A stretch of 64,000 bases of DNA, taken from an uncultured Acidobacteriota bacterium. Its GTDB lineage: Bacteria; Acidobacteriota; UBA6911. The position numbers and the translations under genes are program-made. Positions 1,891 through 63,511 of this stretch are shown piece after piece. The notes below the pieces were generated by a model that did not search any database, was not told the origin of the DNA, and worked only from the letters and a program-made list of their open reading frames with translations. The stretch is taken from positions 526,291-590,290 of the forward strand of contig CAVXIH010000002.1 in assembly GCA_963761825.1 (NCBI GenBank), written 5' to 3'. Numbering within the stretch: position 1 is the stretch's first letter; the number at the start of each line of letters is the position of its first letter.

Positions 1891-2665
1891 TTAGACTGCT
1901 GCTACTGGATCCGCAGACTGGTGCACTGCTCCGAATGCCCTTCTCCGTGGGCTTCTTCCACAGCGCCTGAAATGTAAACCATTGTAAGCAAAATAAAAAT
2001 AAAGGATTGAATAGTGCTCAGCAAAAGCGCCAGGAACATCACGACGACCGAGGCGAGAAACGGAAACAGATTATTGAGCGAACTGATGATCAGCTCTTCC
2101 GCAAATATGTTGCCGAAAAGTCGGACGCTCAGCGAAAAGGGGCGCGCCAGGTGACTGATGAGTTCGATAACGAAAAGAAGCGGCGCCAGCCAGATAACCG
2201 GCCCGCAAAATGCTTCAGATAGCCGACAAATCCCTGCTTGCGAAAACCCTGATAGTTGTAATACATGAAGACGCAGAGGCCCATCGAAGCCGTGATGTTA
2301 AAGTTGCTCGTCGGCGAAAGAAATCCCGGAATCATGCCAAGGAGATTCCCAATCAGAATATAGACGGCCAGGGTGATAATCAGCGGAGTAAACCGACGAT
2401 ATTCGCGGCCGATCACTTCCTTCATCAGGCCCTGAATGGCGGTGAAAATCACTTCGACGAGGTGCTGGGCCCGCCCTGGATTGTCCACGCTGAGCCGGCC
2501 TCGCAGCCACCATGAAAAAAGGATAAGCGCGGAAGCGATCAGCAGGACAAGGACGATATGGTCCGGGACGGCATGGCCATGACTCGGGTGAAAGCCCATG
2601 GCATGGGCGATGGGATCGAACAGGTAACCGTTCAGGAAATTGCCTACTGCAGAAGTTTCGTGCAT
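1891..2665 (-). CDS. atpB: F0F1 ATP synthase subunit a (frameshifted; 3' end approximate)
   Basis: GNLLGMIPGFLSPTSNFN; downstream frames give LSVRLFGNIFAEE and FIFILLTMVYISGA. Confidence 0.92.
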
Positions 2666-3451: not shown

Positions 3452-3545
3452 GGAGAGGTACCGAAGTGGTCGTACCGGGCTCGACTCGAAATCGAGTTAG
3501 GGACCAAAAGTCTCTACGTGGGTTCGAATCCCACCCTCTCCGCCA
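3452..3545 (+). tRNA. tRNA-Ser (anticodon CGA)
   Basis: Acceptor stem GGAGAGG/CCTCTCC, discriminator G plus CCA, anticodon arm CTCGA-CTCGAAA-TCGAG, long variable arm, GTTCGAATC T-loop. Confidence 0.97.
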
Positions 3546-4670: not shown

Positions 4671-6283
4671 ATGAAAGCACCGCATCTTTCCTTTGTGGCT
4701 TTTAGCCTGCTTTGATCGTGCTGGCAAGCGTATCCGCACTGGCTGCGGATCAGGAGTCTTGCGGACAGCTGGCGAACCGGAAACTGGATAAAGTGACGAT
4801 TACTTCAGCTGCTTACATAAACGACCCACAGGGCTTCCCACTGCCTCAAACCCCCGGCATGTTCGGCACTCCCCCGGGACAAAAAACTACGGCGCAGTTT
4901 TGCCGGGTGGAAGGATATATCGAGCCCGTGCCGAATTCGCATATCGGTTTCGAAGTCTGGCTGCCGCCCGCCGAGCAATGGAACAACCGATACTTTGGAG
5001 TCGGCAATCCGGCTTTTGAAGGAGCGATAAAATATCAGGGACTGAAACTCGCCGTTGAAAAAGGGTATGCGACGGCTTCAACGGATACGGGCCACCAGGA
5101 TCCCGGCCATAAATGGGCGACGGGCCAGCCTGAGAGGCTGATCGACTGGACGCATCGGGCAGTGCACGAAACGACGGTCGTCGCCAAGAAGTTGATAAAG
5201 GCATTTTATGGCAAACCGCAAAAATATGCGTACTGGGATAATTGCCATAATGGAGGGCGCCAGGGACTCACCGAAGCTCAACTCTATCCCGAGGATTTCG
5301 ACGGCATCGTGGCGGGCGATCCGGCCTATTATCTGACGCATCTGCAGGCAGGTTCGGAATATTTGAGCTGGTTAAATCTGAAAGGCGGCACGTCCGCTGC
5401 CTCTTACATACCGCCGGCAAAATATCCCGCGTTGCATCGCGCGGCTCTGGAGGCCTGCGACGCCAAAGACGGCGTCAAAGACAATGCGATTGAGGATCCG
5501 ACCCGATGCAATTTTGATCCGATATCCATTCAATGCAAGGATGAGGATACATGCATCCTGTTTGACGCCGCCCCAGGTCGAGACTGCCCGGCGCATCTAT
5601 GCGGGCGCAAAGTTTTCCGACGGCACACAAATCTATTCAGGTTTCGAACCGGGCAGCGAACTGCTCTGGGAGGCCATGATCAAAGGCCCCGAACCGCTTT
5701 TTATCAATAATGACTTTTTCAAGTATATTGCATTTGAAGATCCGAATTGGGACTTCCGCACCTTCGATGTCGACGCGGATACCCGCAAAATCGACAAGCG
5801 CCTTGGACCTGTCATTAATCACACTCAGACCGATCTGAACGCCTTCAAGAAACGCGGCGGCAAGCTCATCCTGTATCAGGGCTGGAACGAAACCTGGGTC
5901 CCGCCGCGGACAGCCACAACCTATCTATGACGGCGTCATCAAAACCATGGGAGGAGAAAGCAAAACCAAGGACTTTTTCAGATTATTCGTGATTCCGGAC
6001 TACGGCATGTGTGCGGCAATGTTTCCGGGGACTTTTGACGCCCTGGGAGCGGTGCAGAAGTGGGTAGAGGAAGGCGTTGCACCGGATCAAATCAAGACTA
6101 CCTATGCCGAACAAGGCCGCCAATTTCGAGAGCGGGCGGGCATGCAAGACACGCCCGAATCCAAGAGTCCGGGTCCTCAAGACACGGCCGGTATGCCCCT
6201 ATCCGGAGGTAGCAATTTACAGGGGGAGCGGCGATACGAACGACGCGGCAAATTTCAAATGCGGCAAGCCGACCTGGAAGTAG
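4671..6283 (+). CDS. Secreted tannase/feruloyl esterase-family alpha/beta hydrolase with substituted catalytic residues (several frameshifts)
   Basis: FCRVEG, IGFEVWLP..WNNRY, GYATASTDTGH, YPEDFDGIVAG, GGKLIL, FFRLF, WVEEGVAP and TRPVCPYP across ORFs 4712, 5484, 5947 and 6077. Confidence 0.9.
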
Positions 6284-6351
6284 CTGGGAAAGAGGAGTCA
6301 GAAATTCGGAAGTCAGATACGCCGCGTGTGCGCGGCCTGTAACGCTCAGCC

Positions 6352-6838: not shown

Positions 6839-7333
6839 TCAATCGGCGAAGACGGTCAGCTTGCGCTCCTGAATCAACCACTTGCCATTGCGCTTGACGA
6901 GTCGATCTTCCGAGCGGCCCATTGCAGCCGCGGTCATCTTGCTGTCCTTATCGCGAACCACCGTCTGCCAGTACGACTGGTGCAAGGCTTCGCCGGGCTT
7001 CGGGAACGTGATGCGTACATTGCTGATCACATGGTACAGATTTGAAGTTGGCAATCCCTTCGCCTTGTTGTCATCGCGCCGCTGAATGAGGCTCATGACG
7101 ATCTTGCGAATCTCCTCTCGTCCTTTACTGATGTTGCCGTTCGAATCGATGCTGGCATCTTCGGTGAATACGGCGACATAACCCTCAGGATCGAGCGAAT
7201 CCACCGCCCACACATAGCGCGCCATCACGTCCTCGACCGCCATACGGTCTTCGTAGGTACCGAGATGTTCCTGCGCAGTGACGAGCACAGGCGCGATAAT
7301 TAACGCAACAAAAACAGCGTATTGCAGTCGCAT
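6839..7333 (-). CDS. Secreted SnoaL-like/NTF2-family protein
   Basis: Signal peptide; EDRMAVEDVMARYVWAVD, FTEDA, HVISN and EDRLVKRNGKWLIQER. Confidence 0.85.
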   Translation of the reverse strand: MRLQYAVFVALIIAPVLVTAQEHLGTYEDRMAVEDVMARYVWAVDSLDPEGYVAVFTEDASIDSNGNISKGREEIRKIVMSLIQRRDDNKAKGLPTSNLYHVISNVRITFPKPGEALHQSYWQTVVRDKDSKMTAAAMGRSEDRLVKRNGKWLIQERKLTVFAD

Positions 7334-7402
7334 GGTTTGTTTTCCTCATTTTTGTTCCGATGATGATTCAAAATGCGTCACCGATGCACGCGTCAAACAG
7401 AA

Positions 7403-7463
7403 GCTTAACGTTAGGCATCAGCGGCAGCGCCCAGCGCTATCCGCTGCATGCCGGTGTTGGGGC
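7403..7463 (-). mobile_element. Integron attC recombination site (well conserved)
   Basis: Minus strand GCCCCAAC-acc-GGCATgCAGCGG..CCGCTGATGCC-taac-GTTAAGC: R'' and R' (GTTRRRY) boxes, dyad with extrahelical G, 4 nt after the GNAT stop. Confidence 0.85.
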
Positions 7464-7467
7464 AGTC

Positions 7468-8016
7468 TTACGTTTTATTTTGCCACTCGTCCCTCAAGAT
7501 AGCGTAGCGATAGCCAAGAAATTCGATAGGTGTACCATCTTCTGCAACTCTGAAAGAGGCTGTTTCCTCGCCAATCTTCTTAAAGCCTAACCGCTCCAGC
7601 AGCCGACAAGACGCCCGATTGATAGCGGCAGTTCCGCTAACCACTCGGTATGCCTGCAATGGACCAAACGCGCGACGTAAAACGGCGCTGAAGGCTTCGG
7701 TCGCATAACCTTGACCGTGGAAATCGTGGTTGAAGACATAGCCAGCATTAAATTGCCGTTGACCGTCTCCTTCTTCGGCATTGAGACTCACGAATCCGAT
7801 CAGTTGGCTTGTATCCTTCAAACATACAGCCAGAAAGCTATCTCCAGCGGCAAACCATTCTGTGACTTTCCTGATCTCTTCCTTTGCGGTGGGCCATGGA
7901 TGGTCGTAGGGTGCGAGCTCGGAAGCCTGATACTGAACGATTAGCTCATAGAGAGCGTGCCAGTCGCTGGTTTGGAAGTTCCTGATGATTAGTCTTTCTG
8001 TTTCCAGCATTGTCAT
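7468..8016 (-). CDS. GNAT N-acetyltransferase (RimJ/RimL-like), gene cassette
   Basis: LETERLIIR, GYVFNHDFHGQGYATEA and NRASCRLLERLGF motifs; flanked by attC sites. Confidence 0.92.
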   Translation of the reverse strand: MTMLETERLIIRNFQTSDWHALYELIVQYQASELAPYDHPWPTAKEEIRKVTEWFAAGDSFLAVCLKDTSQLIGFVSLNAEEGDGQRQFNAGYVFNHDFHGQGYATEAFSAVLRRAFGPLQAYRVVSGTAAINRASCRLLERLGFKKIGEETASFRVAEDGTPIEFLGYRYAILRDEWQNKT

Positions 8017-9563: not shown

Positions 9564-11049
9564 TTATGATGAAGCGGGAGCGGATGAGTCTATAGGGCCG
9601 ATGAGATTCACATTCAGCCGGATCATTTCCTCACGGAGCGCCTTCGTATAAATCCCGGCCACCATCACGTGATGGATTCCTACGATTTTCTGAAAGAAAA
9701 CATCGGCCTCTTTGATTTTAAGCTCCGCCCGGTTTGAACAGTACCTGCGCATTTTCTTAAGCTCGGGTACCGGGCTGTCAAAGGATGGGTGATTCGTATC
9801 ATCGATACCCGCCTGAATTCTTCCGGGCCATGCCACAAAATTCTTGAAGGTCCTTGGTGAACCCGCCCATTGTCACTTCCAGGCCAATCGGAAATGAAAC
9901 CTGCGGAGTGACGCCTCCTACTCCATGATAATCCCGAAGCCTGTACGGCAGCGCTGCGGCGTTTCGGCCCAGCAACTGCAACGGCGCGACGCAATGACGG
10001 AGAACCGTGCTGGATTTTTCGATATCGACGGAAGATATATTGCAGAAGTACGATGGCTTCTGACTGATCTCCTGCAGTACCATGGTGGACAGCATTCCGC
10101 ATACATCTGCTTCGCATGGCATCGCAAATCCTTCGTCGCGCAATCGTGTGAATGCCAGGCAAGGCGGCGGCAATTTCCGCTTGGAGCTGAATGAGAAACT
10201 CAGGCAATCGATCGAGATTCCCGATAATCCCTCTTTTTCAATAATGGAGCGCAAAAGAACATACATCTTGCACGATTCAAGAAGTGCTTCATCCGTAGGC
10301 TCGACAATGGAGGCCGCTTCCTTCTTCCACCTTTCCATTTCCTTTTTGGCGTCGGCCGGATCAACGGTTTCAAGCAGCACTTCCAGCTGTTCAATCGGCC
10401 GGAATTCCAAGCGGACGCCGGTGCGATTATAAATGGTCGCAGCAGTCAGGTTGCGCGCAGGCACGCTGGTGGAGTCAAATGGCCTGCCGTAGATGACGGC
10501 TCGCTTGCCTTCCAGCAGCCTGGGAACTGCCAGAATCTTCATCAATTCGATCGCGTGCGTTTCAGAATTGGCAAGCAGGGCGTTGGAGCCTTTTGCCCGG
10601 AAGGCCGCAGCGACATTCGCTTCCATCATGATCAGGTCCGGAATCGGGGGAAGAAGTATCATGGGAACATCGATATAATCCAGCGAAACCGGAATATTTC
10701 CGGAATTCAAATTTGTCCGCGGTAAGCCGAAGAAGAGAATATCCGGAGCCTCCGTCTGAATGGTTTTGATAACTTCCTGCGGCTTTTGATAATCGGTCTT
10801 AGCCGTGACTACGGAAAATTCAAACTCCTTGATCGATTTTACCGACTGAATCAAGCGCTCAAATGAGTCCGGAAAGTCGCTCAGCAGGAGCAACTTCCTT
10901 TTATTCCCTCTATTCGCCGGTCTCGTCACACTTGCAGGATTCTGCGCCAGAGCAGCCGCCGGAAGAGTGGCTGCCATGCCCGCCATAGTCGTTGTCTTTA
11001 TAAAATCGCGCCTTCCGACATGAGCGCACCCGCAATTCCCTTTCATCAT
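9564..11049 (-). CDS. L-fucose/L-arabinose isomerase-like protein with Tat signal (frameshift near 9840)
   Basis: GRRDFIKTT leader; GISIDCL, PCLAFTRL, PCEADVCG, HCVAPL, LRDYH and CSNRAE motifs. Confidence 0.75.
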
Positions 11050-12053: not shown

Positions 12054-12392
12054 GAGTATAAAGGGTGTTTATTTGAACATAGCGCTGCAACCGTGATTTC
12101 CTTCGATAGATGCTTCAAACCCCTCACCATAGACAATGGCCGAGAGCCTGACTTCCTCATTGGCTTCAAAGAGAATTCAACTCTACGAGTAACGCATCCT
12201 ATGCTCGCCAGACTTTGGTGGTTCCGAATGGTGTGCCATAAGCAGGAATTCATTGAACGATGCCGCAGAATTATGACTTCGTCGGAGAGATCCCTTTGTT
12301 CCAATAAATAATTTCTTTTATTATTCCAATAAGTTCGTCGATACTATGGCTGTTCACAGAAGTAAAATAGAATGCATTCCAGGGAGTTCTCC

Positions 12393-13163
12393 ATGAAAAA
12401 GCTAGGATTATATACGACGTTTCTATTCATTTTCTCAGCCTGTTTGCTCCTGATTGCTGGAGGCACGTTGCAGAATGCTGAAGCGCAAATTTTCAGTCAA
12501 GATCTGACGATGCATTCGACGACAACTAGTTCCGGGATGATGGGCCGGGGCGGCGGGTCTGTCACGAGCACAGAATATTTCAGCAAGAATGCCATTAAGA
12601 CAAGTTCGTCTGATGGCAACGACAGCATCATGCGTTTCGACACCCAGAAGCTGATTTCAATCGACAGCAAGAAAAAGACATATTCCGAAATCACTTTCCA
12701 GCAGTTGCAGGACATGCTTAGCAAAGCAGGAGCTGCAGTGGGCGGGATGAGCGATGAAGACATGGCCGCCATGAAGAAAATGATGGGGCAGACGGCAACT
12801 TCCTTTTCGGTTACTAAGGTGGGCCCCGGAGAAAGCATTGCAGGATTCGCGACGGAAAAATATCTCCTTAAAGGACCCATGGAAGTGGAAATCTTTGCTG
12901 CCAGCGATCTCAAGCTACCCGCAGCCTACTATGATGTGATGAAATTCCAGATGCCCTCCATGCCGATGTTCGACATGCGGAAGATGTATGAGGAAATGAA
13001 GAAGGTATCAGGGATCCCTCTCAAGACCATTACAATCATGAAAATGATGGGCAATGAAATGAAGACAACGAAGGTTGTCACTTCGATAGAAAAAGGGCCA
13101 ATACCGGCATCTGTTTTTGAAATCCCGGCGGGCTACAAACGCGTGGAAGCCGAACTGAAATAA
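12393..13163 (+). CDS. DUF4412-like secreted protein
   Basis: Signal peptide; GPGESIAGFATEKY, GIPLKT and SIEKGPIPASVFEIPAGYK C-terminal signature. Confidence 0.8.
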   Translation: MKKLGLYTTFLFIFSACLLLIAGGTLQNAEAQIFSQDLTMHSTTTSSGMMGRGGGSVTSTEYFSKNAIKTSSSDGNDSIMRFDTQKLISIDSKKKTYSEITFQQLQDMLSKAGAAVGGMSDEDMAAMKKMMGQTATSFSVTKVGPGESIAGFATEKYLLKGPMEVEIFAASDLKLPAAYYDVMKFQMPSMPMFDMRKMYEEMKKVSGIPLKTITIMKMMGNEMKTTKVVTSIEKGPIPASVFEIPAGYKRVEAELK

Positions 13164-13660: not shown

Positions 13661-14547
13661 CTATTTGCATGCCGGTTCAGTCGGCCAGCCTATCGATTCG
13701 TATTTTTTGCCATACTCAAAATATGCCTGGATCCAATCTACCTGGCCATTTCTCATCTTGAACATATGGAAGTCGGGCCAGACGTTGTCAAAAAGAGTGT
13801 ACGCAACCACGATGCCTGTTTCCACATCCACTAGAAATCGTCGGGGACCGTGGGTCATGTCGGCGAAACCCTTAGGCGAACAATTGTGCGCAGGCATTGG
13901 TTACGCCCTGGTTTGTTCCTCCTTTTGTTGTTTGCATGCCGTTTTCCCAGCGGTCACAGATCTTGCCGATAGGCAAGTTCGGAGACCTTCGGCTTTTGCT
14001 CTTTGACAAACAATTCAAAATAATCATCGGCCGCGGCCATCATTGCCAGGCGCGAACTCCGCTGCTCGGGCGGAAGGATGCTTTCCCAATCCTGGTCTTT
14101 TGTATCCAGGATGGCTTTAACGTCGAGCACTTCCTTTCCGCGCACAACAATGGCTTCGATCTCAGAAATCTTCTCTTTGTCGATCTTAAGCCGAACGCCG
14201 TAAAGCATCGACTTGCCGTTTTCATCTATTATGGTTTGCGTATGCGTTCCACATTTCTGGGTGTCAATCAAACCACGTTTGAACGTCAGCTTGCCGGCGG
14301 TTTCCCAAGAACCCTTTCCTACCGCAACTGCTATGCCGTTTTCCGTGTATCTCACGCCAGAAGCGAGCGGTACGCTGGATGGATTATGTGTTTCAAGAGC
14401 TGTAAAGAATTTGTCGGTGATGGCCTTGAGGCTTTCACGTGTGCAGACCTGGCCGCTTGATTGCGCTATCGCGGCGATATTGCTGCCCGCAACCAAAAGC
14501 CAAATTGCTCCCCCTAATAATGCCCATCGCAATACGTTTTTCACCAT
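13661..14547 (-). CDS. Secreted protein of unknown function, paralog 1 of 3 (frameshifted near 13900-13975)
   Basis: Signal peptide; CTRESL..F..ALETHNP..VPLA..VRYTENG, RLKI..KISEIE, CDRWENG and RRFLVDVETG; matches 37217 and 62447. Confidence 0.8.
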
Positions 14548-35186: not shown

Positions 35187-37013
35187 CTAATCTCGAATCT
35201 CGGATCTCGAATCTCGAATTTGCAGCATACCCTTGCCGCTCGTTACGGTGCCAATCTCGTTGGTAACCGCAACGACATACGCGGCGGCGTCATCCAAGCG
35301 CACATTTTCCAGAGTCAGTGTTGGGTGCGTTGCCCCGCGTACAGGCTTGCCGTTCTTAAACCATTGGAAGCTTGCTTCCGGAATGGACGCGGCTTTGACG
35401 CGGAAGACTGCCGTTTTCCCCGGGCTTGCCTGTATCGACTTCGGCTGCGACAGGATCAGCGGAGCCATTTTGGGCATCCATCCTCCCAGCACGTAGGCAG
35501 GATTCCTATAGTCAGCGATTATTTTCGCATCCTTCTCCAGCGTCAACTGCCGTGAAGCCGGGTGACGCCGGCCGACATCGACGGGCTTCCTGTCGCTCAG
35601 GTTCGTGCTGTTATATTCCCAATAACGGACATTCGATGTATCGCCGCCGATCTCTCCCCATCCGACAGGGGAAATACCTGAAAGCGCACAATCAATCAAC
35701 ACCGCTTCGCAATAAGGATAGTTCTTCCCGCCATTGGTCGGGGCCCGGGCAATCACTGTTTCCTGGTTTCCTCTTGTCCTAAATATGCTGTTCACGAAAA
35801 CGTTGCCGTGATTGGCCGACGTGTTCCGAATCCACATATATGGACCGATAGAGCTCAGTTCACAATTCTGGAAAAAGGCAGGGCCGCGGCCAAGGATAGT
35901 ATCTCCGTCTCCGGTGATTTTGCAGTCGGTGAAATACGCGGCGCCGTTGGACTGCAGAGCATCCCCGGAACCTACAATGGTGACGTGGCTGACGATGATC
36001 TCTTCTCCGCTGAGCAGCAATCCTTCCGCCTGGCCGTAGGCGGTTGTTTTGATGGTGAGATTCACGAGATGAATTCCGCTCGAATGATCGACCGCAAATG
36101 CCGCCCGGCGCGAAGGAAAAGATACCGGACACCTCATTGGTTTTTATGTTTACCGGGTGCGGATTGAAGACTTCGTTGTTCGCATAAAATACGATTACTT
36201 TGTCTTGATCCTCACCAAGGATAGTAACGTTGGTTTTGTTGCGGAAATAGACTATCTCCTCATACATACCATTCTTGATGAAAACAGTGATGCGCTTAGG
36301 ATTGCGGTCTGGAATAAAATCCATGGCTCCCTGAACAGTATTGAAGTCCCCGGTGCCATCGGCACTGACTGTAATTTTGCTGGAATCAATCGGCGGCGGA
36401 GTTTTTCTAGTGCTGAATTTCCAGCCATTGACTCCAACAACCCCTTTGAAACTGCCATCCGGCAGAGTCAGCACTCCTGGATCAATTTGAACATAATAGG
36501 TTTTGTTATATTCCAGAAGATTGTTGTGCGGATAGATGGTTGCGGTGTTGTGGCGGATAATCACTGGGTAAAAATGGAACCCATCGGTAAAGCCACCGAT
36601 GATAGTCAGTTGATAATTATCAGGAGTGGGAAGCGCAGCGCCGGATGGCGTTCCCGCTTTTGTATTGGCATTGGTGAAGCGCCCCGAAACGTATTCGTAT
36701 GGGACCGGAGAATACGTCGCCGAGGGAGAAGGAGTAGGTTGGGTAGGACCAGGCGGGATGCTCAAGTCCAGAGTATCAACCAGACGATTATCCGCTGCAT
36801 CGTAAATGCGAATCTGTCCTGAATTCCCCAGGACAGGCGCACTTGGGAAAGTGAGGATCAGATGCGTATCAGGATTGACGTTTCTGGCGTTATGCGCCGG
36901 AAGCAGGACGATTGTCTGTGAAGCGGAAGGGGCGCCCGGCAAGCCATCCGATGATATATCTAACAGGCTAGCAGTATTGGGCATAGGAAGAATACTCTTA
37001 TAGTTTTTGCCAT
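35187..37013 (-). CDS. Pectinesterase-family (CE8-like) protein with Ig-like domains (frameshifts near 36960 and 36130)
   Basis: VSADGTGDFNTVQGAMD, IKNGMYEE, GQAEGL, GSGDAL, GDGDTILG and IARAP; C-terminal FQWFKNG Ig domain. Confidence 0.85.
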
Positions 37014-37216
37014 GGCAAACCCTCGCAGGCCGAAACATTTCGGGCTTCACTATACTATAAAATAGGGTACTGAGCGCAAACAGCTGAGAGCTGAAAGCTG
37101 ACAGCTGACAGCCTTCAGTTCTCAGCTCTTTCCACTTTGCCCCGTGTTTCTTTCCTTGTGTATCCGGCGAAAAGCCTTTATAAGGAAACCTTCCAATATA
37201 GGAGGAGTTTTCGACC

Positions 37217-38113
37217 ATGAAAAAAATAATAGCTATTATCGCCTTCCTGCTTTTAGGCGGTTTCTACGGCATTTCGAATGCGCGGGCAGCCGAACCCCAG
37301 GCCGCACCCGCCGGCGCAGCCTGCGACCGCGCGTGCCTGGCTGGATTCGTCACGCAGTATCTGGACGCGATGATCGCGCATAAACCGGAATCGTTGCCTG
37401 TCGCTGTCAACGTGAAGTTCACCGAGGACTGCAAAGAGCTGAAGCTAGGCGAAGGAATTTGGAAAAACATCGCTAAGCTGACAAATTACCGCAGGGATAT
37501 CCTGGACGTGCGCCAGGGCGTGGCCGTCTCGTTCCTTGTTGTCGAGGAGAACAGTTTGCCGGTTCTGTTTGTCATGAGGCTCAAGATCGTCGACAAAAAG
37601 ATCACCGAAATCGAGACGACGGCAGTCCGCGGCCAAAAAGAAGGGATGCTTTTCAACACACAAAATCTGCAGACCGCCAGCAAGACGATGACCTCCGCTG
37701 TGGACAAGGCACAGATGAATTCCAGGGAAGATATGATCAAGATGGCCCTGACATATCCGGCGGGACTGAAAATCGGCAGTTTCGTAAAAGTAGATTCGCC
37801 GATGGCGCCCGATGCCTACCGCTATGAAAACGGCCAGCTCATGGCCGGCCCAGGATGCACTTTTTTCAAGGGCTGCGACAACATGAAGACCCAGATGATT
37901 CCGACTTTGTCCCAGATCACCCATCGCGTGATCGCGGTCGATGAGGAACTCGGAATTGTAGCAGTGCGCATGAATTTCGGGCCCGGCTCTACTTTCGAGG
38001 GCAGCGGTGTGCTGGATGTCTGGCATTCGTTTAAAATCTATGGTGGCCAGATTCATGCTGCGGAAGCCTACTGCGAAATCGTCCCGACGGGAATGAAGTC
38101 AGGATGGGAATGA
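37217..38113 (+). CDS. Secreted protein of unknown function, paralog 2 of 3
   Basis: GGAGG RBS; signal peptide; CDRACL..YLDAMIAHKP, RLKIVDKKITEIE, RYENG, AVDEELG and KSGWE. Confidence 0.85.
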   Translation: MKKIIAIIAFLLLGGFYGISNARAAEPQAAPAGAACDRACLAGFVTQYLDAMIAHKPESLPVAVNVKFTEDCKELKLGEGIWKNIAKLTNYRRDILDVRQGVAVSFLVVEENSLPVLFVMRLKIVDKKITEIETTAVRGQKEGMLFNTQNLQTASKTMTSAVDKAQMNSREDMIKMALTYPAGLKIGSFVKVDSPMAPDAYRYENGQLMAGPGCTFFKGCDNMKTQMIPTLSQITHRVIAVDEELGIVAVRMNFGPGSTFEGSGVLDVWHSFKIYGGQIHAAEAYCEIVPTGMKSGWE

Positions 38114-62446: not shown

Positions 62447-63511
62447 ATGAAATTCAGACAAATGATAGCCACAATCGGCATTCTCGTATCTCTTATCCTG
62501 CTGGGAGCATGCGGCCCTCAAGCGAAGCAGGAACCTGCTCAAACTACCCAGGCGACACAGGACGTGAAATACGACCGGCAGGGTCTCGTCGACCTGGCGG
62601 GGAAATATCTGGCGGCTATGGTAAAACACGAACCCAGCGCCGTACCCTTCGCCGAGAAAGTGAAGTTCACGGAGAACACGGCGGAAATACCGGTAGGAAA
62701 AGGGTTATGGACAACCGCATCGGGTGGTCCCTCGGAATTCCAGATCTATGCCGCGGATCCCGTGGCGCAACAAGTCGCCTTCCTCGTAATGATGCAAGAA
62801 AACAATAAGGACGTCCTTTTGGGTGCGCGCCTCAAGCTGGAAAATGGCAAAATCACCGAAGCCGAGCACCTGGCAATCCGTGACTTGGGCACCAGCCCCA
62901 TGGGACAGGGCGCTCTGGACAACTTGAAAACGCCGCGCCCCGGCTTGCTAGAGGATGTGGCACCGGCCGACAAGATGACGCGCGATCAGCTAATAAAAAT
63001 TGGACTTACCTATTACGATGCTCTTACAGGAGAAGACGGTAAGCTTTCACCCTTTGCCACTGAATGCGAACGCCACGAGAACGGCGCGTTAACCGCAGGA
63101 GGCAAGCCGCAACCTCAACCGAAGCCGGCCGCGAACACACCGGCTCCGAAGGTCGATCCTGAATTCGAGAAAATAATGAAGGCGATGGCGGCAGCGGGCC
63201 CCGTAGCCAATACCTGCGAAGCTCAAATCAGCACGGGCCAGTTTTCCTATATCACTGAGATCAACCCCCGTCGTGTGCTCATCGCGGATGAACAGAAGGG
63301 TCTTGCTGTGGGCTTTTCGATGTTTTACCACGACAGTTCGCTGAAGGAGTATACGTTTAAAGGCCCCAAAGGGGAGATGAAGATGCCTTCCTACCAGGGC
63401 ACGTTCAATCTGCCGGCGATGCACATCTACAAAATTAAAAACGGCAAAATGTACGACATCGAAGCGATCGGCTTCACGATGCCCTACGGCTTAAAATCCG
63501 GCTGGGAATAG
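62447..63511 (+). CDS. Lipoprotein of unknown function, paralog 3 of 3
   Basis: Lipobox LGAC; YLAAMVKHEP..VKFTEN, RLKLENGKITEAE, CERHENG, ADEQKG and KSGWE. Confidence 0.85.
   Translation: MKFRQMIATIGILVSLILLGACGPQAKQEPAQTTQATQDVKYDRQGLVDLAGKYLAAMVKHEPSAVPFAEKVKFTENTAEIPVGKGLWTTASGGPSEFQIYAADPVAQQVAFLVMMQENNKDVLLGARLKLENGKITEAEHLAIRDLGTSPMGQGALDNLKTPRPGLLEDVAPADKMTRDQLIKIGLTYYDALTGEDGKLSPFATECERHENGALTAGGKPQPQPKPAANTPAPKVDPEFEKIMKAMAAAGPVANTCEAQISTGQFSYITEINPRRVLIADEQKGLAVGFSMFYHDSSLKEYTFKGPKGEMKMPSYQGTFNLPAMHIYKIKNGKMYDIEAIGFTMPYGLKSGWE

Follow-up and report, generated by a model that had tools for sequence, protein, structure and literature searches.

Histidine, glutamate and methionine at the catalytic triad positions of a bacterial tannase-family clade

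Introduction

The closest known relatives of the gene treated here are three fungal esterases of the tannase family, FoFaeC (6FAT, 8BHH, 9HUN), AoFaeB (3WMT) and the Aspergillus oryzae protein 6G21, together with a more distant enzyme, the MHETase of Ideonella sakaiensis (6QZ3, 6QGA), which likewise belongs to Pfam family PF07519 ('Tannase and feruloyl esterase'). We analysed a gene at positions 4671-6283 (+) of a 64,000-nucleotide stretch of DNA, hereafter the window, from an uncultured Acidobacteriota bacterium (GTDB lineage Bacteria; Acidobacteriota; UBA6911; assembly GCA_963761825.1, contig CAVXIH010000002.1, positions 526,291 to 590,290). The gene encodes a member of this family in which, according to an earlier prediction made from the letters of this DNA, all three residues of the catalytic triad have been replaced. 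The triad signature that the prediction gives for the family is CS-D-HC.

For FoFaeC, the parts of PMC13618265 available to us describe a Ser201-Asp412-His452 triad, a disulfide Cys200-Cys453 and an oxyanion hole made by Gly123 and Thr202. For MHETase, the available parts of PMC7568301 place Ser225 and His528 in the canonical triad, give an active-site disulfide Cys224-Cys529 as one of five conserved disulfides formed by ten family Cys residues, and report Ser at position 131, where 91% of the family has Gly. Calcium binding in the lid is stated in these portions for both FoFaeC (PMC13618265) and MHETase (PMC7568301).

The gene and its family

The gene runs from an ATG to a TAG codon, and a GGAG-like site about 7 nt upstream of the ATG can be seen on reading the DNA. 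No single open reading frame (ORF) spans it; the longest pieces (4712-5710, 5484-5930, 5947-6342 and 6077-6283) lie in differing frames, and reading through the breaks gives a protein of about 537 aa. Four frame pieces match consecutive parts of the PF07519 profile (1-226, 234-386, 403-463 and 458-489 of 490) with 191.7, 61.1, 37.0 and 27.6 bits in that order, three of them above the cut-off of 29.8 bits and the last below it. By homology, the gene is a member of PF07519. Its nearest intact homolog, P0001 (535 aa), shares 93-94% of its residues with the window protein (93.6% identity over the 533 residues aligned with the read-through), and residue numbers below are those of P0001. NCBIfam had no model for the three clade proteins tested, and the ESM Atlas returned generic tannase-family clusters only.

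HMMER alignments of P0001 with the solved tannase-family esterases ranged from E = 2e-70 (6g21) to 2e-61 (9hun, 8bhh, 3wmt, 6fat), with a weaker match to MHETase (E ~3e-40). An AlphaFold model built for P0001 from an alignment of 50 sequences, standing in for the window protein, had a mean predicted local distance difference test score (pLDDT) of 86.9 and a predicted template modelling score (pTM) of 0.88. In Foldseek the model was closest to 6g21 (template modelling scores, TM, 0.84/0.89), followed by 3wmt, 9hun, 6fat and then MHETase (TM ~0.73). Across the three fungal proteins the fold is the same (TM 0.82-0.89) at 28-30% identity, and the alpha/beta-hydrolase core and large lid of the model superpose on the solved members.

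Replacement of the catalytic triad

The motifs named in the original prediction, DNCHNGGRQG, YQGWNE and PDYGMC, are present in the DNA at the codons it gave: Cys-His is TGC CAT at 5243-5248 (His codon 5246-5248), Glu is GAA at 5889-5891, and Met-Cys is ATG TGT at 6007-6012 (Met codon 6007-6009). Each of these codons lies well inside a frame-consistent piece, and the substitutions are not indel artefacts. Alignment to 6g21, 9hun and 8bhh confirmed that His, Glu and Met stand at the positions of the catalytic Ser, Asp and His, with both flanking Cys residues kept; in the alignment rows, 'nCHnGGRQG' falls on 'gCStGGRQG', 'yqGwnEtwv' on 'yhGlmDqli' and 'ygMCaa' on 'maHCsg'. The aligned pairs (P0001/FoFaeC) are His192/Ser201, Glu406/Asp412, Met445/His452, Cys191/Cys200 and Cys446/Cys453, the chain numbering of 9hun agreeing with that used for FoFaeC in the available text of PMC13618265. 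Parts of the gene are as follows (window coordinates, strand).

4671..4747 (+): putative Sec signal peptide, a hydrophobic core and then ALA-A, recognised by eye
5009..5020 (+): oxyanion loop, GNGG changed to GN-P113-A-F-E116
5243..5248 (+): Cys191-His192 of the nucleophile elbow; in the model the His follows strand 185-191 and precedes helix 193-204
5318..5320 (+): Asp216 (canonical Ala), directly after strand beta6 (211-215 in the model)
5345..5359 (+): Gln225, Ser228 and Glu229 at the lid entry, aligned with FoFaeC Gln234 and Ser237 (pocket) and the neighbouring Gly238
5456..5500 (+): putative calcium-site motif of the lid, CDAKDGVKDNAIEDP, with Asp263, Asp266 and Asp270 each in 121/121 clade members
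5877..5909 (+): acid loop after beta7, with Gln402 (for His), Glu406 (for Asp), Thr407, Trp408 and Arg412, from the alignment and its columns
6007..6012 (+): Met445 at the place of the catalytic His, and Cys446, the disulfide partner of Cys191

The oxyanion loop is altered as well. Pro113 aligns with FoFaeC Gly122 and MHETase position 131, beside the oxyanion Gly123; Ala114 (Ala in 96/121 clade members) aligns with Gly123 itself and Glu116 with Ala125, so that the changes from FoFaeC to the clade comprise Gly122>Pro, Ala125>Glu and Ala225>Asp in addition to the three triad replacements. This Pro, found without exception in the clade, takes the position at which MHETase has Ser in the available account of that enzyme (PMC7568301). 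Despite Pro113, position 114 may still offer a backbone NH.

Much of the remaining site is shared with the fungal esterases, which are alike with the clade in the calcium motif of the lid and in the Cys pair at the catalytic positions. Leu224, Gln225 and Ser228 are identical to the FoFaeC pocket residues Leu233, Gln234 and Ser237, Trp408 and Val409 align with the pocket residues Leu414 and Ile415, and the hydrophobic residues of the lid are kept in the clade. Each clade-specific residue listed here follows one of the core strands in the model at a distance of no more than about 15 residues; Glu406 comes after strand 397-403 and Met445 after strand 435-440. From the alignments and the model, the remodelling thus appears to be centred on the catalytic crater, with part of the aromatic-acid pocket kept.

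The calcium-binding Asp motif of the PF07519 lid is present at the sequence level, and Asp263, Asp266 and Asp270 are the candidate ligands. All five Cys pairs of the family are kept, including the one that flanks the catalytic Ser and His positions, and each of the ten Cys columns exceeds 90% in the clade; by analogy with the enzymes in the available parts of PMC7568301 and PMC13618265, Cys191 and Cys446 would form a disulfide. Retention of all ten Cys of the five family disulfides fits export of the protein, and together with the signal-peptide-like N terminus leads us to regard it as a probable exported protein.

A conserved clade

A database search with the first frame piece returned intact proteins as its best 120 homologs (about 494-656 aa, 57-93% identical), and when these were aligned to the profile, all 120 had Cys-His. 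Adding one library representative gave a clade set of 121 sequences, which was compared with 119 canonical Ser-Asp-His relatives. The positions that distinguish the two sets are listed below.

Position 192: clade His 121/121; canonical Ser 119/119
Position 406: clade Glu 119/121; canonical Asp 119/119
Position 445: clade Met 107/121 (Gly 4, Arg 3, Ile 3, Ala 2, others); canonical His 119/119
Position 113: clade Pro 121/121; canonical Gly 105/119
Position 216: clade Asp 120/121; canonical Ala 87/119
Position 402: clade Gln 111/121; canonical His 94/119
Position 225: clade Gln 121/121; canonical variable
Position 228: clade Ser 119/121; canonical variable
Position 229: clade Glu 119/121; canonical variable
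Position 412: clade Arg 119/121; canonical variable

The replaced positions are conserved above most of the protein, and the two Cys residues are close to invariant (Cys191 in 121/121 and Cys446 in 120/121). Judged by these columns, the changes reach beyond the triad to Pro113, Asp216 and Gln402 and, in the subclade of the window gene (94 sequences with Arg196), also to Glu116, His146, Glu229 and Trp408; Glu116, His146 and Trp408 are each found in 93/94 members. The Ser-Asp-His triad that defines tannases, feruloyl esterases and MHETase as serine esterases is absent, with neither a Ser nor a His in any of the 121 clade members at the respective columns. Because the Ser nucleophile is missing throughout, the clade proteins are probably not serine esterases, in agreement with the original prediction, though databases label them so: JGI gives 'feruloyl esterase' for many of the 120 clusters, and NCBI uses 'tannase/feruloyl esterase family alpha/beta hydrolase' for the few that it names.

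Of the 80 genome loci that were retrieved by means of the clade profile, 21 were of the clade type (20 with His and one with Tyr) and the other 59 were canonical. The clade loci come from Acidobacteriota, several of them 'Acidiferrales' or 'Acidoferrum', and from metagenome-assembled genomes (MAGs) of Desulfobacteraceae, to which the names of the homologs add Thermodesulfobacteriota and gammaproteobacterial MAGs. The clade proteins are thus bacterial, whereas FoFaeC, AoFaeB and 6G21 are fungal. In a library clustered at 50% identity, a single one of the best 150 representatives (P0122) was of the clade type, which indicates a compact but well populated clade. A motif search through 401 genomes of the phylum matched 12: the source genome, all three others of its genus and eight scattered ones. 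A reversed-pattern control also matched eight genomes, equal to the number of scattered matches outside the genus, and CH[N/E]GG was found in only three of those eight (G005, G166 and G188).

A FastTree phylogeny of 128 rows, unrooted and sampling one clade protein in four and one canonical protein in two, placed the 43 clade rows on one side of a branch with support 100 and a stem length of 0.21. The row nearest to the clade was L029, a canonical acidobacterial protein with Gly113, Ser192, Ala216, His402, Asp406 and His445 that is 48% identical. Neither the 80 loci nor the 150 library representatives nor the 120 nearest homologs included a protein in an intermediate state, and the catalytic centre therefore apparently changed as a block on one stem. 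Pairwise ratios of nonsynonymous to synonymous substitution rates (dN/dS) within the clade were 0.078-0.205 for 15 of the 18 printed pairs, dS being saturated in the other three, and the window gene compared with L009, the nearest locus with DNA, gave 0.078. On the evidence of the tree and the substitution rates, the clade is monophyletic and held by selection. The search for homologs sharing CH..E..MC, which the original prediction had proposed, thus recovers a monophyletic, maintained clade and supports the new subfamily envisaged there; the two sequence-based outcomes it had named as contrary, close homologs that keep CS-D-HC and neutral evolution of the window copy, were not what we found.

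The source genome (G000) holds further copies of both types. One intact clade paralog (G000:C14:31580-33130) is 78% identical to the window copy, and two canonical Ser-Asp-His paralogs lie on C12 and at C16:150667-152040. The canonical acidobacterial proteins, L029 and these two, have a similar length and signal-peptide-like N termini but keep all six of the canonical residues listed above for L029, and the clade differs at every one of them. A divergent clade paralog lies on C3. The end of C16 (G000:C16:300001-304544) repeats G000:C3:58575-63119, a stretch of about 4.5 kb that includes this paralog, at 99.47% identity with 21 mismatches and 3 gaps; strain variation, a haplotig and a duplication of recent date are possible sources of the repeat. 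The three other genomes of the genus have intact clade genes at four loci, but at 49-67% identity and with no synteny these cannot serve as orthologs for the indel question.

Frameshifts in the window copy

A tblastn search with P0001 and piecewise translation located five frame changes in the gene, each of them +1, near 4690, 4705, 5550, 5925 and 6170. They were compared with contigs from four wetland or sediment metagenome runs (X1, X3 and X5 below mark their origin) that are 85-99% alike to the window.

4690..4692 (+): inserted base 1, frame 0 to 1; the sole covering X3 contig omits the base at 4690, and X1 contigs have no gap
4705 (+): inserted base 2 (G), frame 1 to 2; X1 and X3 contigs omit one base
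5550..5551 (+): inserted base 3 (C), frame 2 to 0; all covering depth in the four runs omits one base
5924..5925 (+): inserted base 4 (C), frame 0 to 1, creating a TGA at 5928-5930; X1, X3 and X5 contigs omit one base
6167..6171 (+): inserted base 5 (C in a CC/GGG run), frame 1 to 2; X1, X3 and X5 contigs omit the base at 6167, 6169 or 6171

Except at 5550/5551, only some of the covering contigs omit the extra base, and near 5925 and 6170 they account for about half of the depth or less. No sequencing run contains more than 0.26 of the sampled words. Among the 40 best-supported differences to the related contigs, 23 were synonymous and 17 were not, with 523 further differences beyond these. 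When the gene is read through with X at the breaks, no other stop appears, and comparison with an alignment of 50 clade sequences shows that all 96 invariant columns are kept, as are 107 of the 108 near-invariant ones.

Single-base indels of this kind recur in the source genome. Its only rpoB match lies in three frames (G000:C16:45794-47358), with both shifts +1 by coordinates, and a class-I aminoacyl-tRNA synthetase occupies four frames (G000:C9:119179-121021). Within the window, two genes are in pieces: atpB (ATP synthase subunit a) at 2129-2665 and 1902-2042 (-), and a pectinesterase gene at 35860-37218 and 35187-36137 (-). The indels are patchy, and the shifts are mostly +1 where the direction can be read. 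Because essential genes of the same genome are broken, the rpoB shifts are also +1 and related contigs lack the extra bases, and because the read-through keeps the invariant columns, meets no other stop and evolves at the low dN/dS found against L009, the five insertions are likely assembly errors and the gene is likely intact in the organism. The original prediction, which touched on the indels only briefly, had treated them as errors, and the related contigs, the read-through and the broken essential genes agree in making this likely.

Possible functions of the clade

We know of no characterised alpha/beta-hydrolase that has a His at the centre of the nucleophile elbow and has lost the base His. 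No paper on a His-for-Ser clade of the tannase family was found in the literature either, although supplementary figures S8-S10 of PMC7568301, a source available to us in part, might show a minority His state. The available parts of PMC3531081, on the ESTHER database, list Ser, Cys and Asp as nucleophiles of alpha/beta-hydrolases, Ala in MKS1, and non-catalytic members. Like the clade, these examples show as a general principle that an alpha/beta-hydrolase can lose its nucleophile or exchange it for another residue, and can acquire new chemistry or binding roles. The elbow of RutD in the same source (PMC3531081) reads 'GHALG', in which by our own reading the His is second in the pentapeptide, whereas the His of the clade is central.

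The reading that we favour, and to which as a whole we give an even chance, is that the clade consists of secreted enzymes with a new, His-centred chemistry in the kept aromatic-acid pocket. An aromatic- or acyl-carboxylate-like ligand would be bound in this pocket, and catalysis would proceed with no acyl-serine intermediate. His192, positioned by Glu406 and/or Asp216, would act as a general base or acid and would activate water or the substrate directly, possibly aided by a cation to which the newly fixed carboxylates Glu116, Asp216, Glu229 and Glu406 would bind.

Several observations weigh against this proposal. At one locus (L018:7944-9551) the otherwise invariant His is replaced by Tyr (SSCYEGGNQG), which may be a real variant or an error. 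The C3 copy of the source genome and L026 belong to a subclade with Ser406, Gly445 and Leu229, so that the His-Glu pair cannot be universal; this subclade keeps His192, Pro113, Asp216, Gln225 and Arg412, which marks these five residues as indispensable and Glu406 and Met445 as dispensable. No conserved operon that could hint at a function was found in 19 clade loci and the three copies in the source genome, and no member from a cultured organism was found among the names listed for the homologs and loci. As to the reading of the frameshifts as assembly errors, five insertions within 1.6 kb are a higher density than most of the window shows, with its intact ORFs of 927-1054 aa. Finally, invariant polar pocket residues would also be expected of a pure binding protein.

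Such a binding protein is the strongest of the alternatives, though we think it unlikely. The protein would have no catalytic role, and its old pocket would bind a phenolic or aromatic acid or something similar in the periplasm or outside the cell, with His192, Glu406 and the other new polar residues as contacts only. The complete loss of the Ser-Asp-His triad alongside retained pocket residues is what this explanation predicts, and the alpha/beta-hydrolase fold has non-catalytic members such as neuroligins and thyroglobulin in the available parts of PMC3531081. The replacements themselves speak against it, since His is found in 121/121 and Glu in 119/121 clade members and four new carboxylates and a Pro are fixed around them. 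Former catalytic positions usually drift in non-catalytic homologs. In the clade we did not find the relaxed conservation at lost catalytic positions that marks a pseudoenzyme; the replacements are fixed, and dN/dS is 0.08-0.2. Nor is a transporter or sensor gene conserved beside the gene in the 19 loci and the three copies of the source genome.

A His/Glu/Met metal site, as suggested in the original prediction, appears improbable. In this explanation His192, Glu406 and Met445, kept close by the Cys191-Cys446 disulfide, would bind copper or another metal with a redox or storage role. The three residues do occupy mutually touching positions of the canonical triad, and a further His and carboxylates are fixed nearby. 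Ligands of periplasmic Cu(I) are typically His and Met. Of the three, however, Met445 varies most: its replacements include Gly, Arg, Ile and Ala, and one subclade has Gly. This variability weakens the case for Met as an obligatory metal ligand; metal-handling neighbours were seen neither at the clade loci nor around the window gene.

Least probable of all, if only by a little, is that the window copy is a true, recently inactivated pseudogene made redundant by the intact C14 paralog, for although five frameshifts have accumulated in a window with long intact ORFs and no contig of the best-holding runs carries the insertions, which leaves either state in the strain without independent confirmation, rpoB, the aminoacyl-tRNA synthetase and atpB, all essential single-copy genes, are broken likewise, the lesions are all +1 insertions (four of the five being C), and the amino acid sequence has not decayed.

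Gene surroundings

Upstream of the gene lies a tRNA-Ser(CGA) at 3452-3545, followed by about 1.1 kb with no ORF longer than 120 aa up to the gene start. A scan for promoters and terminators gave a result no better than shuffles. Downstream and convergent is a gene for a secreted SnoaL_4/NTF2-like protein (6839-7333, -), followed by a GNAT acetyltransferase (7468-8016). L019 has a homolog of the SnoaL_4/NTF2-like protein (12267-12764; 32% identity) at a distance of 2.7 kb from its clade gene.

Neighbourhoods were compared for 19 of the 21 clade loci, L025 (split) and L030 (partial) being left out, together with the three copies of the source genome, and no neighbour family was shared by more than six loci. 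One recurrent neighbour, which is secreted, about 280-340 aa long and without a Pfam match, stands directly beside the gene in 4/19 loci; a PDB sequence search with it found nothing (best E = 0.88). As tblastn places members of its family at no fewer than about 30 sites in the source genome, its closeness to the clade gene may be due to chance or taxonomy. The family is present in 7/19 clade loci against 1/59 canonical loci, a contrast confounded by taxonomy, and by eye the N-terminal part of its members is NTF2/SnoaL-like. Further members occur in the window at 13724-14547 (-), 37217-38113 (+) and 62447-63511 (+), and in L019 at 5146-6159, 7041-7901 and 9796-10740.

Implications

In the alpha/beta-hydrolase fold it is rare for a whole triad to be replaced and for the replacement then to be kept fixed by purifying selection and, if our reading is true, the clade would be a natural example of a serine-hydrolase scaffold re-used for other chemistry or for binding. 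Canonical and rewired paralogs within one genome, along with L029 at 48% identity, provide natural controls. The patchy single-base indels of the source genome also mean that pseudogene calls in it need read support.

Surveys of how lignocellulose, tannin and polyester are degraded in peat and soil include genes of this clade in their counts, and these counts are inflated if the proteins are not esterases. It is possible, although we hold it with somewhat less than even confidence, that the clade represents a new enzyme class in a serine-esterase shell, and with it the first alpha/beta-hydrolase lineage to have an invariant elbow His, acting as a general base or a cation ligand, with phenolic or aromatic acid derivatives as the substrates in wetland and soil Acidobacteriota. 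If so, hundreds of 'feruloyl esterases' in the databases would be mis-annotated.

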